IMG/VR virus record: IMGVR_UViG_2687453297_000004
Length of the DNA: 38,250 nucleotides
Source of the DNA: a virus
Lineage: Duplodnaviria > Heunggongvirae > Uroviricota > Caudoviricetes
Strand: one strand, 5' to 3'
In this document: in pieces, positions 11,571 through 14,766 of the stretch
How positions within the stretch are numbered: position 1 is the stretch's first letter
Layout of the letters: every line of letters begins with the position of its first letter
Translations under genes and position numbers: made by a program
Notes under the pieces: generated by a model
Seen by the model: the letters and a program-made list of their open reading frames with translations, nothing else
Told to the model about the DNA's origin: nothing
Database searches by the model: none

Positions 11571-12274
11571 GGTTTATCCGCTGTCTGCATAATCCCGATA
11601 GCCAGTGCGAGGGGAAGTAATTCCGGGGAAACTCTTTCAAACAGCGATGCCCATTCTCCTCTCGCCATCACTCTGTCCAGCCCGCCCCCCAACTGCATTT
11701 CAGCAATCTTCCTGATTTCCCGGAACAACGCCGCTTTGATCTCTTCATGCTCAGCTTTATTTTCCGGTGTCAGAAGGTATTCGTCGAAGAACCGGGGAGG
11801 CTGGTTAATCGGGATGTGTTCCTGTTTGCCGTACTTCGGAGACGAACAACATTCTGTTGGCTGACCGGTGAGTTTACGTAACTCCTTCATGAGCAGCTCC
11901 TGATCGTAAACTGTCATCAGTGCCGCAATGGTGGCATGCAGTGCATCGGGCAGTATCCAGGGTTGCCGGCCCGTGGGGCATATAACATCCAGCAGCTCAT
12001 TCGTCCGACAGATACGCTCCTCGCCGTATGACAACAGGCCCTGTCCCGTGTATTCCTCCAGCCTGATCACTGTGCCACCCCGTGGCTTCTGCCAGGTCGT
12101 CAGATCTTCGCCATTCATACGGCGCTCATTCTCCACGTCAGCAGCATCGACAATGACGCTGTTTCCGAGTTCCTGTTTCACCATCTCTTCTATCCGCGCC
12201 AGTACGTAACTTTTACCGCTGCCCACAGGACCGGACACAGTGACAGTGATGACCGGATTCAGTGTGTGCGTCAT
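11546..12274 (-). CDS. P-loop NTPase of unknown function
   Basis: 242 aa; Walker A GPVGSGKSY near the N-terminus and Walker B-like VIVDAADVE; strong SD GAGGAG upstream; divergent from the late operon. Confidence 0.6.
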   Translation of the reverse strand: MTHTLNPVITVTVSGPVGSGKSYVLARIEEMVKQELGNSVIVDAADVENERRMNGEDLTTWQKPRGGTVIRLEEYTGQGLLSYGEERICRTNELLDVICPTGRQPWILPDALHATIAALMTVYDQELLMKELRKLTGQPTECCSSPKYGKQEHIPINQPPRFFDEYLLTPENKAEHEEIKAALFREIRKIAEMQLGGGLDRVMARGEWASLFERVSPELLPLALAIGIMQTADKPHLRSLNT

Positions 12275-12404
12275 ATCGTATTCTCCTCTGTGAATAATTC
12301 ATCGTTTATCCTGCACATCCCGTATCCCCGGCTCTCTTAACGCGCTTTAAAATCCTTTGCGCCCTGTATTTGTGATGCTGTCTCCACCAAACGAGGAGAC
12401 ACAC

Positions 12405-12755
12405 ATGAAAAACCTGAAAAAATTCATTCCCCCTGTTAAAAAACCTCGCCTCAGCGGCTGGCTGCTGACCTCAGTGCTGTTGCTGGGCACCATCGCTCTG
12501 GTCTCACCACAGCAGCTGCCTGTTGTGATCTACAAGCTGGCACTCATCACGCTGGCAGCAGTGCTGGGTTACTGGCTTGACCGTTCGCTCTTCCCCAAAG
12601 CCCGTCCCGGTCAGTACCTGAAACATGACGACAGGCTGATGGCTGAAGGGCGTTTCCCGGTACAGACCGGCCTTCACCTGGTGTTTTCTGCTGCGTTAAT
12701 CCGCCGTGCACTGATTGTTGCAGCGGTCTGCCTGGCTGTTGCGATGGGGCTTTAA
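12405..12755 (+). CDS. Putative holin / small membrane protein at the head of the late operon
   Basis: 116 aa from ATG 12405 (SD AGGAGA); two to three TM helices; immediately precedes the endolysin gene. The ORF track's longer start at 12357 lacks an SD. Confidence 0.5.
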   Translation: MKNLKKFIPPVKKPRLSGWLLTSVLLLGTIALVSPQQLPVVIYKLALITLAAVLGYWLDRSLFPKARPGQYLKHDDRLMAEGRFPVQTGLHLVFSAALIRRALIVAAVCLAVAMGL

Positions 12756-12757
12756 TC

Positions 12758-13498
12758 ATGAACTGGCCGCAGATCACCTGGATTGTATGCATGTCCCTGA
12801 AACTGGCTTTCGAAGCCTTTCGGGTCTTCATCAGAACCGAACGCCTGTCAGTCCGCGCCGGGACCTTTCTGGTTCATATGGCATGGGTATTCTTTGTCGC
12901 AATGTTGCTCTGGTGTGGCGGCTTTTTCAGCCAGGCATGCGCAGCACAACCTCCGCAGGCTGCGCTGCAGTATCGCGATGATGTGATCCGTAATGCCCGG
13001 CTTGAATGGGGACTGTCTGCGCCGGTGGCCGATTTCGCCGCGCAACTGCATCAGGAAAGCGGCTGGCGACCTGATGCGATCTCGCCGGCTGGCGCTCAGG
13101 GACTGGCGCAGTTCATGCCTGCCACTGCCGACTGGATAAGCCAGTTGATACCGATGCTGAGCAGTCGTGAGCCGTTTAATCCGGCATGGGCTATCCGGGC
13201 GCTGGTCAGCTATGACCGCTGGCTGTGGCAGCGTGTCAGCGCCGCCAGTGACTGCGAGCGTATGGCCATGACACTGTCGGGCTATAACGGTGGTCTGGGC
13301 TGGGTACAACGGGACAGGCGGCTTGCATCACAGAAAGGTCTGGACAGCACCCGCTGGTTCGGACATGTCGCCACGGTGAATGCCGGACGCAATGCGGCCA
13401 GCTGGCGGGAGAACCGCCATTATCCGCAGCGCATCCTGCGCGAACTGGCACCGCGATATCTCACATGGGGAGGCAGCAGTTGTGTGGCATCTGGTTAA
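12758..13498 (+). CDS. Endolysin, SLT-type lytic transglycosylase with N-terminal SAR-like hydrophobic segment
   Basis: Catalytic-domain motif LHQESGWRPDAISPAGAQGLAQFMP; N-terminal Gly/Ala/Cys-rich hydrophobic stretch MAWVFFVAMLLWCGGFFSQACAA; exact start uncertain (12758 or 12878). Confidence 0.75.
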   Translation: MNWPQITWIVCMSLKLAFEAFRVFIRTERLSVRAGTFLVHMAWVFFVAMLLWCGGFFSQACAAQPPQAALQYRDDVIRNARLEWGLSAPVADFAAQLHQESGWRPDAISPAGAQGLAQFMPATADWISQLIPMLSSREPFNPAWAIRALVSYDRWLWQRVSAASDCERMAMTLSGYNGGLGWVQRDRRLASQKGLDSTRWFGHVATVNAGRNAASWRENRHYPQRILRELAPRYLTWGGSSCVASG

Positions 13499-14132
13499 AA
13501 AGCTGCCGTGGCGCGGCATTCTGCTGGCCATTCTTATCAATGCCTTTCTGGTCGGCCTGTATGCCATGGGATACAGAAGTGGTCATGACTCTGCAAAGCG
13601 TGACGGTGATACCGCGCTCAGTCAGTTGCAGTCAGCATTTGACGCGTACAAAACGGAGCAGGCAACGCTTGAGAATGCTGCGCTGTGGGCCTGGGCCAGA
13701 CGGTATCAGGAGCAGGTGGCCGCCGGGCAGCGGGCTGAAGCCGGTTATCTTGAGCAGATTGCTCAACTGGAGAGCCGGAATAAACAACTACAGGGGCAAA
13801 TTAACGATGTCACACAGCGCTGGATTGATGAAAAAGGTAAGAGCCATCCCATTGAGTGCGTGTTTACTCGCGGTTTCGTGCGCCAGTACAACGCCGCACT
13901 CGGATATGACAACGCATCCGTCGACACCGGTCATTCAGACTCAGTTGCCGCCGCTGGCACCCGCTCTGGCACAGCGACCGGGCAACCTGAAACCGCTGAC
14001 GCCCGGTTACGCAATTCGGGTGTCTCCCAGCTTGACGTCCTTGCCAACATCATCGACAACGCAGGGCAATGTCGTCGCTGGCGAAACCAGATAAACGCGC
14101 TACTGGATGAACGGGAAGGATTACAGAAATGA
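13482..14132 (+). CDS. i-spanin (Rz-like)
   Basis: GTG start with GGAGG SD; N-terminal TM WRGILLAILINAFLVGLYAMG followed by a coiled-coil-like periplasmic domain; directly after the endolysin. Confidence 0.65.
   Translation: MWHLVKKLPWRGILLAILINAFLVGLYAMGYRSGHDSAKRDGDTALSQLQSAFDAYKTEQATLENAALWAWARRYQEQVAAGQRAEAGYLEQIAQLESRNKQLQGQINDVTQRWIDEKGKSHPIECVFTRGFVRQYNAALGYDNASVDTGHSDSVAAAGTRSGTATGQPETADARLRNSGVSQLDVLANIIDNAGQCRRWRNQINALLDEREGLQK
13828..14094 (+). CDS. o-spanin (Rz1-like lipoprotein), embedded in the i-spanin gene in an alternate frame
   Basis: 88 aa; signal peptide MKKVRAIPLSACLLAVSC with lipobox-like LSAC/AVSC; proline-rich mature region; lies entirely inside the i-spanin ORF. Confidence 0.6.
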   Translation: MKKVRAIPLSACLLAVSCASTTPHSDMTTHPSTPVIQTQLPPLAPALAQRPGNLKPLTPGYAIRVSPSLTSLPTSSTTQGNVVAGETR

Positions 14133-14455
14133 CACTGCAGGTTGAATTCTGGACGGTGGTGAGTTTTTTGCTCACCTTCATGGGGTTTGTGGGAGGGCTC
14201 GCCAAATGGTTGTTCAGTAAAACAGAAGAACGCCAGGCGGCACGATTCGCCTCCCTTGAGCAGGCCCTGCAACAGTCCGCCTCCAACTGGGGCGAACTGG
14301 AAAAAGAATTTATGCGATTTAAAGCGGATTTACCGCTGAATTATGTCCGTCGCGAGGATTATATCCGTGGCCAGACAGTCATCGAGGCCAAACTGGACGC
14401 GCTCTACAACAAACTGGAAGTGGTACAGCAGTACCGCAATACCGGAGGTCAATAA
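14129..14455 (+). CDS. Membrane-anchored protein (N-terminal TM plus coiled coil)
   Basis: 108 aa; TM WTVVSFLLTFMGFVGGLAKWLF; ATG overlaps the i-spanin stop; SD GGAAGGA. Confidence 0.5.
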   Translation: MTLQVEFWTVVSFLLTFMGFVGGLAKWLFSKTEERQAARFASLEQALQQSASNWGELEKEFMRFKADLPLNYVRREDYIRGQTVIEAKLDALYNKLEVVQQYRNTGGQ

Positions 14456-14766
14456 TGGTCGATATTACCCGGGTACGCCGAGAATCCCTGCGCTGGAGTC
14501 TGCTGGTTGCCCTGAACAAGACCCGCCCTTACACCGCCAGCGAGACGCTGCTGCTGGATGTGTCCCGTGCCATCTACCCGGACACCACACCGCTGGAACT
14601 GCGCCGCGAACTGGATTATCTGGCTGACCGTAAAATGGTTGATCTGGAGAAAAAACCTTCTGGCGACTGGTTTGCTGACCTGACCCGCCTCGGCGTAGAC
14701 CTGGTGGAATACACCGTGGAATGTGGTCCGGGTATTGCCCGCCCGGAAAAGTACTGGAGTGAATAA
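14455..14766 (+). CDS. Hypothetical late protein
   Basis: 103-aa ORF translationally coupled on both sides (TAATG overlaps). Confidence 0.45.
   Translation: MVDITRVRRESLRWSLLVALNKTRPYTASETLLLDVSRAIYPDTTPLELRRELDYLADRKMVDLEKKPSGDWFADLTRLGVDLVEYTVECGPGIARPEKYWSE

Follow-up and report, generated by a model that had tools for sequence, protein, structure and literature searches.

A probable embedded two-component spanin in the lysis cassette of a BcepMu-like prophage of Escherichia coli

Can one stretch of phage DNA encode both subunits of a spanin, each in its own reading frame, in the BcepMu-like prophages of E. coli? The question is raised by a locus within 38,250 nucleotides of viral DNA (IMG/VR record IMGVR_UViG_2687453297_000004; hereafter the window), in which an open reading frame (ORF) resembling that of a small lipoprotein lies inside the gene of an inner-membrane spanin subunit (i-spanin). 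The window is an E. coli prophage of the BcepMu-like, Mu-type transposable kind. It comprises a full-length genome colinear with BcepMu-like genomes, with ORFs for transposase, terminase, portal, head and tail proteins. The family occurs in 637 of 5,426 complete E. coli genomes (~12%). Escherichia phage PhiKM, deposited as a phage, has a lysis cassette 98.7% identical to the one analysed here, and KP12, another record deposited as a phage, also carries the cassette. A literature search returned no paper on the spanins of E. coli BcepMu-like prophages, and Rfam and tRNA scans of the window gave no match.

Table 1. Positions of lysis cassette features in the window
Feature	Position	Strand	Size or part	Basis and remarks
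Holin	12405..12755	+	116 aa	PF13272 Holin_2-3, E=1.1e-41; phrog_1528 holin, E=5.5e-55
SLT-domain endolysin	12758..13498	+	246 aa	PF01464, E=1.8e-14; phrog_669 endolysin, E=8.8e-69
Endolysin N-terminal membrane module	12758..12931	+	residues 1-58	phrog_5479 match; hydropathy
Shine-Dalgarno GGAGG of i-spanin	13469..13473	+		8 nt before GTG; read from sequence
i-spanin	13482..14132	+	216 aa	GTG start; phrog_1403 Rz-like spanin, E=2.1e-89
Embedded o-spanin	13828..14094 (incl. TAA)	+	88-aa precursor	ORF and translation; predicted 70-aa mature lipoprotein
Lipobox Cys codon TGC (Cys18)	13879..13881	+		predicted lipidation site; TGC in 56/56 distinct full-length relatives
Membrane-tethered coiled-coil protein	14129..14455	+	108 aa	phrog_462, E=1.6e-36; 49% identity to BcepMu gp25

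The genes listed in Table 1 abut or overlap. The holin (PF13272) and SLT endolysin (PF01464) genes lie directly upstream of the spanin pair, the endolysin ATG following the holin stop by 2 nt (TAATCATG); the start of the coiled-coil protein gene overlaps the i-spanin stop (ATGA), and a Mu Gp27-type small terminase, identified by Pfam search, is encoded directly downstream of the cassette. No sigma-70-like promoters were found in 12150-14600, so that the embedded gene is without a promoter-like site of its own, and the four terminator-like sites in the same interval are not clearly above the shuffled expectation. The absence of internal promoters and a terminator count near expectation fit a single polycistronic late unit.

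The longer of the two overlapping frames carries the name 'lysis system spanin subunit' in RefSeq. Its product is 29% identical to the BcepMu Rz protein gp23 (blastp, E=3e-14) and 30-33% identical, over more than 90% of its length, to the Rz proteins of B3 and JBD25-type phages (tblastn). The start codon is GTG in 55 of the 56 distinct relatives and ATG in the remaining one. Hydropathy indicates one hydrophobic segment (residues 13-31), and a single-sequence AlphaFold2 model of moderate confidence (mean pLDDT 62.7) predicts helices at residues ~10-32 (transmembrane), 36-118 and 183-215, joined by a low-confidence linker at 119-182. Two periplasmic cysteines, Cys126 and Cys197, are both kept in 56/56 distinct relatives. 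A periplasmic cysteine for an intermolecular disulfide is present in 507 of 528 spanin systems (PMC6139136), and Cys126 and Cys197 provide at least one here. The same work reports a pattern of cysteine compensation between subunits, which fits the presence of two cysteines in this i-spanin and of none in the mature product of the embedded frame.

The sequence-only reading of this DNA had proposed that an 88-aa ORF with a lipobox-containing signal peptide and a proline-rich mature part is fully embedded in the i-spanin gene in an alternate frame, and on these points it proved accurate. The ORF lies at exactly the positions proposed, is offset by 346 nt and hence in the +1 frame, and spans 0.53-0.94 of the i-spanin length. 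The predicted precursor reads MKKVRAIPLSACLLAVSC|ASTTPHSD..., and its signal divides into MKKVR, AIPLSACLLAVS and Cys18. Three basic residues (K2, K3, R5) make up the charge of the n-region, the h-region is uncharged, and L-A-V-S precedes the cysteine. This arrangement satisfies a PROSITE-type lipoprotein rule (a rule-based call). Position +2 is Ala and there is therefore no inner-membrane retention signal. The mature part is rich in Pro, Ser and Thr, with 11 Pro among 70 residues. Since position -3 of the lipobox is the non-canonical Ala rather than Leu, Val or Ile, a strict lipobox pattern would overlook this protein; the catalogued B3 o-spanin also has Ala at -3. Starting from a second in-frame ATG, at 13807, would lengthen the signal peptide by seven residues and leave the mature product unchanged. 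The Shine-Dalgarno sequence of the ATG at 13828 is weak (tGGAt) and that at 13807 has AGGGG 9 nt upstream, so translation could start at either.

Pfam, PHROG and NCBIfam searches with the embedded product gave no match, as expected for short, Pro-rich, embedded genes, and a homologue search of protein databases gave only six matches, none of them full-length. A rival reading is that the frame is a chance opening in a GC-rich gene, untranslated and functionless, with selection confined to the i-spanin frame. In 20,000 synonymous-codon permutations of the i-spanin gene, an ATG-initiated ORF of at least 88 aa appeared in an alternate sense frame in 28.5%; an open alternate frame alone is thus unremarkable, and frame openness was dropped as evidence for a gene after this test. 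The +1 frame in the window is in addition open for 209 codons, far past the proposed o-spanin gene, the ORF has never been called by a gene caller, and its exact translation is absent from 15 billion proteins, all of which speaks for a chance frame. What such a frame explains poorly is its content, since an ORF with a lipoprotein-type signal arose in only 0.385% of the permutations, and its conservation and homology, described below. Taken with these, we regard a chance origin as very improbable.

The sequence-only reading had named two outcomes that would refute it, lack of a predicted lipoprotein signal and lack of conservation of the embedded frame in relatives, and neither was seen, the signal being judged by rule. 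An ORF occupies the same place in the same frame at all 83 of the 83 related loci, which come from at least 11 enterobacterial genera, and in 81 of them it is 88 aa long. The two exceptions are decayed copies in Mixta mediterraneensis, where the ORF is 108 aa, Cys18 is replaced by Tyr (the sole change of this residue seen) and the i-spanin is truncated too. Among the 56 distinct genes, both ATGs (13807 and 13828), the TAA stop and the Cys codon are kept in all, without a single internal stop, whereas the same +1 frame just upstream of the o-spanin start is broken by stops in 46 of the 56. The +2 frame, taken as a control, contains 7-8 stops per half.

The variability of codon positions flips inside the overlap. 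At the i-frame wobble position, entropy is 0.73 ahead of the overlap and drops to 0.24 within it (Mann-Whitney p=7e-12), and along o-spanin residues 19-65 it is the o-frame wobble that is most variable (0.44 vs 0.21, p=0.005), as expected from selection on the +1 frame and not from a chance opening. Changes altering both proteins are depleted (26% vs 44% expected, p=7e-6) and i-frame-silent changes dominate over o-spanin residues 66-88 (p=0.0015); the excess of o-frame-silent, i-frame-altering changes over residues 19-65 is marginal when taken alone (p=0.08). Purifying selection acts on both frames. A mosaic history, rather than dual constraint, could nevertheless account for part of the lower divergence seen in the 3' half of the gene, and the 39 nt past the o-spanin stop are also rather conserved. 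The conserved core of the o-spanin (residues 19-65) lies over the disordered i-spanin linker, and the C-terminal i-spanin helix lies over the variable tail of the o-spanin, whose C-terminal third exists as two allelic types. The DNA is nearly invariant where the conserved i-spanin motif PIECVFTRGFVRQY and the o-spanin signal peptide share it.

Conservation of this kind might also be seen if the pair were a decaying, functionless remnant in a cryptic prophage, preserved only through recent insertion. Decay does occur in the family: besides the Mixta mediterraneensis copies, Candidatus Erwinia dacicola has a truncated i-spanin, and a Salmonella (Infantis) Mu-like remnant has kept holin, SLT and gp25-like genes and lost its spanins, and is for that reason uninformative on the embedded frame. 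The copy in the window, however, sits in a full-length colinear BcepMu-like genome, both frames remain intact in relatives whose nucleotide identity falls to 66-70% in the non-overlapping part of the gene, and PhiKM and KP12 carry the cassette in records deposited as phages. We therefore give little credence to the remnant explanation.

The closest described counterpart is found in BcepMu (NC_005882), with whose gp21-gp27 the cassette is colinear gene by gene. The order in both is holin, SLT endolysin, i-spanin with an o-spanin embedded in the +1 frame, the transmembrane/coiled-coil protein gp25, gp26 and the small terminase. BcepMu gp24 is annotated 'Rz1, out of frame, embedded proline-rich protein' and occupies 0.51-0.94 of the i-spanin length, compared with 0.53-0.94 here. 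All six proteins have detectable homologues in BcepMu, with identities of 52, 61, 29, 36, 49 and 57%, and the spanins reach only 29% (i-spanin) and 36% (o-spanin). They differ in detail as well: the lipobox of the BcepMu o-spanin is canonical (L-S-A-C) and the protein carries an additional periplasmic Cys, whereas the prophage protein has L-A-V-S-C and no periplasmic Cys, and the BcepMu i-spanin has one periplasmic Cys where the prophage i-spanin has two.

A similar arrangement is found in Pseudomonas phages of the B3 and JBD25/JBD67 type, where a lipoprotein ORF in the +1 frame begins at a matching relative position and the holin and SLT endolysin are homologous to those described here. Aligned to the mature prophage o-spanin, BcepMu gp24 and the o-spanins of B3 and TAB03 score z = 8.0, 9.8 and 8.9 respectively, relative to composition-preserving shuffles of which 0 of 2000 reached the observed score. 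A core LPPxLxxRPGxxxxLTPxY is common to these o-spanins, the mature proteins of the B3/JBD25 type sharing it with the prophage o-spanin at z = 9-10, although their LAAGC lipobox and extra periplasmic Cys are unlike the prophage form. That embedded o-spanins of BcepMu, B3 and JBD25 type are homologous to the prophage product, despite an i-spanin identity of only ~30%, is again difficult to reconcile with a chance frame. The spanins of BcepMu and of B3/JBD25 are catalogued as embedded two-component spanins, with B3, JBD25, JBD18 and JBD67 forming one group (PMC6139136). Judged from sequence, both prophage subunits belong to this BcepMu/B3-type family (phrog_1403; gp23/gp24).

The likeness to lambda Rz/Rz1, which the sequence-only reading had stressed, is one of architecture. 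In lambda too a Pro-rich lipoprotein serves as o-spanin, its gene lying entirely inside that of the i-spanin in the +1 frame, and Rz has the same succession of transmembrane helix, helix, linker and helix, with periplasmic Cys for homotypic disulfides. The comparison holds for architecture and presumed mechanism only, and no kinship in sequence is detectable: neither PF03245 (Rz) nor PF06085 (Rz1) gave a Pfam match at E up to 0.1, and lambda Rz1 aligned to the mature o-spanin no better than shuffles (z = 0.3). Mature Rz1 has 40 residues compared with 70 here, the prophage protein has no penta-proline run, and in lambda the spanins go together with a cytoplasmic endolysin and a large-hole holin.

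Small prophage-encoded lipoproteins that act in exclusion exist, and the product of the embedded gene could be a genuine outer-membrane lipoprotein that acts not as a spanin but, for example, in superinfection exclusion or receptor masking in the manner of Cor and Llp. A mature length of 70 aa, greater than the 40 aa of lambda Rz1, and a variable C-terminal third with two tail types would be compatible with such a role. The location of the gene is less so, as it is inside the i-spanin gene at a position (0.53-0.94 L) typical of embedded o-spanins (0.4-0.5 to 0.9-1 L; PMC6139136), has no promoter-like site of its own, and has been inherited together with the i-spanin in the BcepMu, B3 and enterobacterial lineages. 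The cassette contains no other lipoprotein gene, and the i-spanin would otherwise be without an outer-membrane partner. We consider a non-spanin lipoprotein improbable, if marginally less so than the chance frame or the remnant. The reading that we favour, and hold to be very probably correct, is that the two overlapping genes specify a two-component embedded spanin, the outer-membrane-disruption module of the lysis cassette; it is supported by the family matches, the homology to BcepMu gp23/gp24 and the dual-coding signature.

Beyond the ORF anatomy, homology, synteny and two-frame selection described above, we infer lipidation, complex formation, membrane fusion and a requirement for lysis along the following lines. 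One DNA stretch would encode both spanin subunits, the two frames sharing it by partitioning constraint. The i-spanin would be an inner-membrane protein of type II whose periplasmic domain has a helix-linker-helix layout, and the o-spanin would be exported, receive its lipid on Cys18 from the host lipoprotein pathway and, with Ala at +2, be sent on to the outer membrane. On the model of lambda Rz/Rz1, the subunits would bind through their C-terminal parts and bridge the periplasm through the murein meshwork, in a complex to which homotypic disulfides at i-spanin Cys126 and Cys197 probably lend covalent stability. After murein degradation by the SLT endolysin, the spanins would fuse the inner and outer membranes and so complete lysis.

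The proteins expected to act before the spanins were examined as well. A pinholin of the phage 21 S68 type has ~70 aa and two transmembrane domains, the first a SAR domain, and forms small heptameric holes. The upstream membrane protein, earlier taken for a possible pinholin, does not fit this description in size or segment number: it has 116 aa and three hydrophobic segments (residues 16-34, 40-58 and 92-110), matches the holin families PF13272 and phrog_1528, is 52% identical to BcepMu gp21 and is named 'putative holin' in RefSeq. In functional terms, depolarisation alone would suffice if Sec exports the endolysin. The endolysin has its SLT domain at residues 97-193 (13046-13336), with a catalytic-type Glu100 in LHQES at 13055-13057, and is 61% identical to BcepMu gp22 over residues 62-238.

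The SLT domain and the hydrophobic N-terminus noted in the sequence-only reading are both present, but the N-terminus is not the classic single SAR helix. It is a module in which a positively charged loop connects two hydrophobic segments (residues 6-24 and 35-59) and which ends in a conserved LLWCGGFFSQA; a conserved AXA motif (ACA|A), possibly a site for signal peptidase I, follows. The module matches phrog_5479, a family of stand-alone 53-aa proteins, over the whole 53-position profile (E=5e-4 for the prophage allele, 4.6e-15 for KP12 and 8.7e-9 for B3), and three divergent alleles keep the layout. It is fused to the endolysin here, encoded by a separate gene in JBD25-like phages and, with 52 aa, in Pseudomonas phage TAB03, and absent in BcepMu, whose endolysin has a short, signal-peptide-like N-terminus. 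In the JBD25-type cassette, a DUF2730 gene follows the spanins and the separate SLT protein has a lipoprotein-type signal; in this split form the SLT enzyme would be lipid-anchored. Cleavage at the AXA motif would convert the fused form into a membrane peptide of ~58 aa and a periplasmic SLT enzyme, the same kinds of product as from the split form. Homologous SLT endolysins of Pseudomonas Mu-like siphophages have been classed as SAR by bioinformatics (PMC9239132). Simple hydrophobicity sums gave no separation between the SAR domains of P1 Lyz and phage 21 R and the second segment here; the module may act by SAR release, as a cleaved signal peptide or as a permanent anchor.

In the transposable phage Mu, gp22 is a SAR endolysin, gp23/gp23.1 are the spanins and gp25 is a releasin with DUF2730 (PMC9239132). 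Mu resembles the prophage in having an endolysin with a hydrophobic N-terminus, spanins, a small N-out membrane-tethered coiled-coil protein, and gp26-like and gp27-like genes, in that order. Mu has no holin, and its endolysin, a muramidase, carries a single SAR helix, whereas the prophage combines an SLT enzyme, a two-segment module and a holin. The coiled-coil protein encoded after the i-spanin, which may be part of the lysis cassette, has an N-terminal hydrophobic segment (residues 7-25), and its gene sits where JBD25-like phages carry the DUF2730 protein. A releasin/DUF2730 identity, which this topology and position would fit, found no support in Pfam or hhalign: PF10805 (DUF2730) matched neither this protein nor 24 homologues at E up to 1, Pfam DUF2730 was not matched by BcepMu gp25 or B3 ORF28 either, and hhalign to Mu gp25 gave a probability of 0.5%. 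Two ~60% identical homologues are named DUF2730 in UniRef. As the Pfam and hhalign tests were negative, we keep the releasin as a positional analogy only.

A speculative and rather unlikely possibility is that the fused module, the holin and the gp25-like protein together constitute an undescribed way to export and restrain an endolysin, which, if true, would be distinct from classic SAR release and from a cytoplasmic endolysin with a large-hole holin. Under this equally doubtful view the unusual element of the cassette would be the endolysin and not the spanin. The embedded o-spanin itself is of a known kind, the expected and unannotated counterpart of the BcepMu embedded Rz1, and is an ordinary finding because the latter has already been described; the understanding of spanins is unchanged by it. 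Its value is mainly for annotation, in a family found in so many E. coli genomes: none of the RefSeq and GenBank records inspected annotates the o-spanin, and the i-spanin often carries the name 'hypothetical protein' or, in error, 'lipoprotein'. The locus also joins two separately catalogued spanin groups, BcepMu/phiE255 and B3/JBD25, and offers a clean natural case in which the conserved part of each protein lies over the tolerant part of the other.

The window is a transposable prophage of Escherichia coli, Mu-type and BcepMu-like. Several complete E. coli chromosomes carry the 2.2 kb round the o-spanin locus at 100% identity; this stretch is present in 637 of 5,426 complete genomes, and matches Escherichia phage PhiKM, placed by GenBank in Bcepmuvirus, at 98.7% identity. 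The cassette genes, all on the + strand, abut or overlap each other: the holin/endolysin junction is TAATCATG, the endolysin and i-spanin genes overlap by 17 nt, and the i-spanin stop shares ATGA with the start of the next gene. No sigma-70-like promoter was found in window 12150-14600, and the four terminator-like sites there are within shuffled expectation. Together with the tight junctions, this agrees with a single late transcript, translationally coupled and depending on a phage activator.

Genes of the lysis cassette, in window positions
Feature	Position	Strand	Match or remark
Holin, 116 aa	12405..12755	+	PF13272 Holin_2-3, E=1e-41; phrog_1528
SLT-domain endolysin, 246 aa	12758..13498	+	PF01464; phrog_669
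i-spanin, 216 aa	13482..14132	+	phrog_1403 'Rz-like spanin', E=2e-89
o-spanin, 88 aa	13828..14094	+	embedded ORF, +1 frame of i-spanin gene
Membrane-tethered protein, 108 aa	14129..14455	+	phrog_462; homologue of BcepMu gp25
gp26-like gene, then Mu Gp27-type small terminase	downstream in cassette	+	

The o-spanin ORF lies wholly inside the i-spanin gene at exactly the coordinates that the sequence-only reading had proposed, at an offset of 346 nt and covering 0.53-0.94 of the gene length. Its product begins MKKVRAIPLSACLLAVSC, in which three basic residues and an uncharged hydrophobic stretch precede L-A-V-S and Cys18. This signal, recognised by rule, and a mature part of 70 residues rich in Pro, Ser and Thr (11 Pro) bear out the lipoprotein nature claimed for the embedded ORF; Ala at +2 predicts sorting to the outer membrane. 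Besides the ATG at 13828-13830 there is an in-frame ATG at 13807 (13807-13809), whose Shine-Dalgarno-like sequence (AGGGG, 9 nt upstream) is the better of the two. The two ATGs are equally conserved, and a start at 13807 would only extend the signal peptide, the mature lipoprotein being identical from either.

By permuting synonymous codons of the i-spanin gene 20,000 times, we found alternate-frame ATG-ORFs of 88 aa or longer in 28.5% of permuted genes, so that openness of the frame is no evidence for an o-spanin gene; an ORF with a lipoprotein-type signal appeared in only 0.385%. The comparison drew 83 related loci, their i-spanins 71-99% identical, out of viral contigs and the genera Pantoea, Buttiauxella, Pseudocitrobacter, Erwinia, Mixta, Trabulsiella, Limnobaculum, Symbiopectobacterium, Apirhabdus, Klebsiella and E. 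coli. All 83 have an ORF in the same frame and position, of 88 aa except in two decayed Mixta copies. Of the 56 distinct full-length genes none departs from either ATG, the TAA stop or the TGC Cys codon, and none has a stop within the 88 codons, which answers the question of whether relatives keep the embedded frame. Upstream of the o-spanin start the same +1 frame is interrupted in 46 of the 56; in the +2 frame there are 7-8 stops in each half. We regard these comparative sequence data as decisive evidence that the ORF exceeds chance, and a merely fortuitous open frame, common as such frames are in the permutations, is very improbable. Decay does occur among the relatives. In Mixta mediterraneensis, the only source of a damaged lipobox among the 83 loci, Cys is replaced by Tyr and the o-frame extends to 108 aa; the i-spanin is also truncated (594 nt), so these copies are decaying. 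The decayed copy of Candidatus Erwinia dacicola has an i-spanin truncated at 603 nt and an intact o-spanin. The likelihood that the window's own pair is a decayed remnant is slight.

Column entropy argues for selection on both frames. Before the overlap, i-frame codon positions 1, 2 and 3 show the usual pattern (0.42, 0.28 and 0.73), whereas inside it wobble entropy is 0.24, down from 0.73 (Mann-Whitney p=7e-12), and the ratio of position 3 to position 1 goes from 1.75 to 0.87. Constraint differs along the overlap. Residues 1-18 of the o-spanin, its signal peptide and lipobox, overlie EKGKSHPIECVFTRGFVRQY, the i-spanin motif best conserved with BcepMu and B3, and the DNA is almost invariant. 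Over residues 19-65, which overlie i-spanin residues ~119-182, of low confidence in the AlphaFold2 model, the o-frame wobble is most variable (0.44 vs 0.21, p=0.005); mean identity over the first 65 overlap codons is 92% for the o-spanin and 87% for the i-spanin. Over residues 66-88, facing the i-spanin C-terminal helix (183-215), i-frame-silent changes predominate (21 vs 7, p=0.0015). Changes altering both proteins are rarer overall than expected (26% vs 44%, p=7e-6). Mosaic history may contribute to the lower overall divergence of the 3' part of the i-spanin gene, and the altered pattern among codon positions argues more strongly for dual selection. Residues 1-32 of the i-spanin (13482-13580; cytoplasmic tail and transmembrane region) fall into at least four allelic types, and relatives differing there are far more alike in the C-terminal two-thirds; nucleotide identity rises from 66-83% before the overlap to 82-99% within it. 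The allele types suggest mosaic exchange on top of dual-coding constraint.

The gene order is that of BcepMu (NC_005882): gp21 holin, gp22 SLT endolysin, gp23 'Rz', gp24, gp25, gp26 and gp27 TerS, with six BcepMu proteins 52, 61, 29, 36, 49 and 57% identical to window homologues. BcepMu gp24, annotated 'Rz1, out of frame, embedded proline-rich protein', occupies the +1 frame over 0.51-0.94 of gp23. Rz of Pseudomonas phages B3 and JBD25/JBD67 is 30-33% identical to the i-spanin over >90% of its length, and B3 and the JBD25-like phage TAB03 have a +1-frame lipoprotein ORF in the Rz gene at the corresponding relative position. The mature o-spanin aligns with gp24, the B3 ORF and the TAB03 ORF at z=8.0, 9.8 and 8.9, scores reached by none of 2000 composition-preserving shuffles, and all four share the core LPPxLxxRPGxxxxLTPxY. 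Set against this homology and synteny, a lipoprotein with some role other than spanin is very improbable. The B3 ORF (1766-2074 in locus L085) runs 7 nt past the annotated Rz stop (CDS 1456-2067) and would thus be 'overlapped', not strictly 'embedded'; B3 is counted among embedded spanins in PMC6139136. The likeness to lambda Rz/Rz1 that had been proposed holds for the embedded architecture but not for sequence kinship, similarity to lambda Rz1 being no higher than to shuffles (z=0.3).

Kongari et al. 2018 (PMC6139136) place (BcepMu, phiE255) and (B3, JBD25, JBD18, JBD67) in separate embedded-spanin groups; the enterobacterial lineage resembles both. They report that embedded o-spanins usually span about 0.4-0.5 L to 0.9-1 L, that nearly all spanin systems have a periplasmic Cys, and that more Cys in the i-spanin means fewer needed in the o-spanin. 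The window locus fits these generalisations, with two invariant periplasmic Cys in the i-spanin (126, 197) and none in the o-spanin; BcepMu and B3 have one in each. The feature is a further, unannotated BcepMu/B3-type embedded two-component spanin, and its existence would not surprise a phage-lysis specialist.

The anatomy, homology, synteny and dual selection of the pair are established, and the last three uphold the core of the sequence-only reading, an embedded spanin pair in a lysis cassette. Hydropathy and AlphaFold2 give the i-spanin a transmembrane helix, long helix, linker and C-terminal helix. Following the lambda paradigm (PMC6139136), the o-spanin would receive its lipid on Cys18 and be sorted to the outer membrane, i-spanin and o-spanin would join via their C-terminal regions to bridge the periplasm and, once the SLT enzyme had destroyed the murein, the complex would fuse the inner and outer membranes. 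By analogy, the pair very probably acts by this lambda-type mechanism.

The endolysin N-terminus had been called SAR-like. It is indeed hydrophobic, but residues 1-58 (window 12758-12931) form not one helix but two segments (6-24 and 35-59) with a positively charged loop between, ending in conserved LLWCGGFFSQA and then an AXA motif (ACA|A in the window, ARA|A in most relatives, AKA|D in B3). Three highly divergent enterobacterial alleles share this layout. The region's match to phrog_5479, a family of small phage proteins that stand alone and have no function assigned, covers all 53 positions of the profile (window allele E=5e-4, KP12 allele E=4.6e-15, B3 E=8.7e-9). In TAB03 the module is a separate 52-aa gene, ending ...WWGGFFG, between the holin and an SLT endolysin that has a lipoprotein-type signal of its own (MKRLLTLGLLGLLSAC), and stand-alone 52-aa copies of the module are common in P. 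aeruginosa; in B3 it is fused to the endolysin, as in enterobacterial prophages, whereas BcepMu lacks it and its SLT has a plain signal-peptide-like N-terminus. Since the bioinformatics of Chamblee et al. 2022 (PMC9239132) put the SLT endolysins of Pseudomonas Mu-like siphophages, JBD25 among them, in the SAR class, 'SAR-like' describes the family fairly. The window's own endolysin may be released, cleaved or permanently anchored. The possible pinholin upstream proves to be a Holin_2-3 protein with three hydrophobic segments and no pinholin feature seen; if Sec exports the endolysin, a holin that only depolarises the membrane would be enough.

The 108-aa protein encoded after the spanins has a hydrophobic N-terminal segment and is otherwise coiled-coil-like. 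At exactly this position Mu has gp25, a DUF2730 'releasin' required to free the Mu SAR endolysin (PMC9239132), and TAB03, like other JBD25-like phages, a bona fide DUF2730 protein (PF10805, 36.7 bits). Two homologues of the window protein (~60% identity) are called DUF2730 in UniRef; PF10805 matched neither it nor any of 24 homologues, and an hhalign comparison with Mu gp25 was negative. The resemblance to releasin is a positional analogy only. In Salmonella Infantis SARB27, a Mu-like remnant beside lysC (genes equivalent to STM4213-STM4219) retains genes for a small membrane protein, an SLT protein of 190 aa and a gp25-like protein of 104 aa, the latter two genes still adjacent; spanin genes are absent from this remnant.

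RefSeq names the 216-aa i-spanin gene variously 'lysis system spanin subunit', 'hypothetical protein' or 'lipoprotein'; 'lipoprotein' or 'putative lipoprotein' is wrong for an i-spanin. No record inspected, RefSeq included, annotates an o-spanin inside the gene. Among 15 billion collected proteins the exact o-spanin sequence was absent, and searching for homologues gave only six matches, none full-length. The fused phrog_5479 module and the gp25-like protein, taken as a pair, are the only lead toward something less ordinary. The value of the locus is that it corrects how a very common E. coli prophage is annotated and shows neatly how overlapping genes partition constraint.
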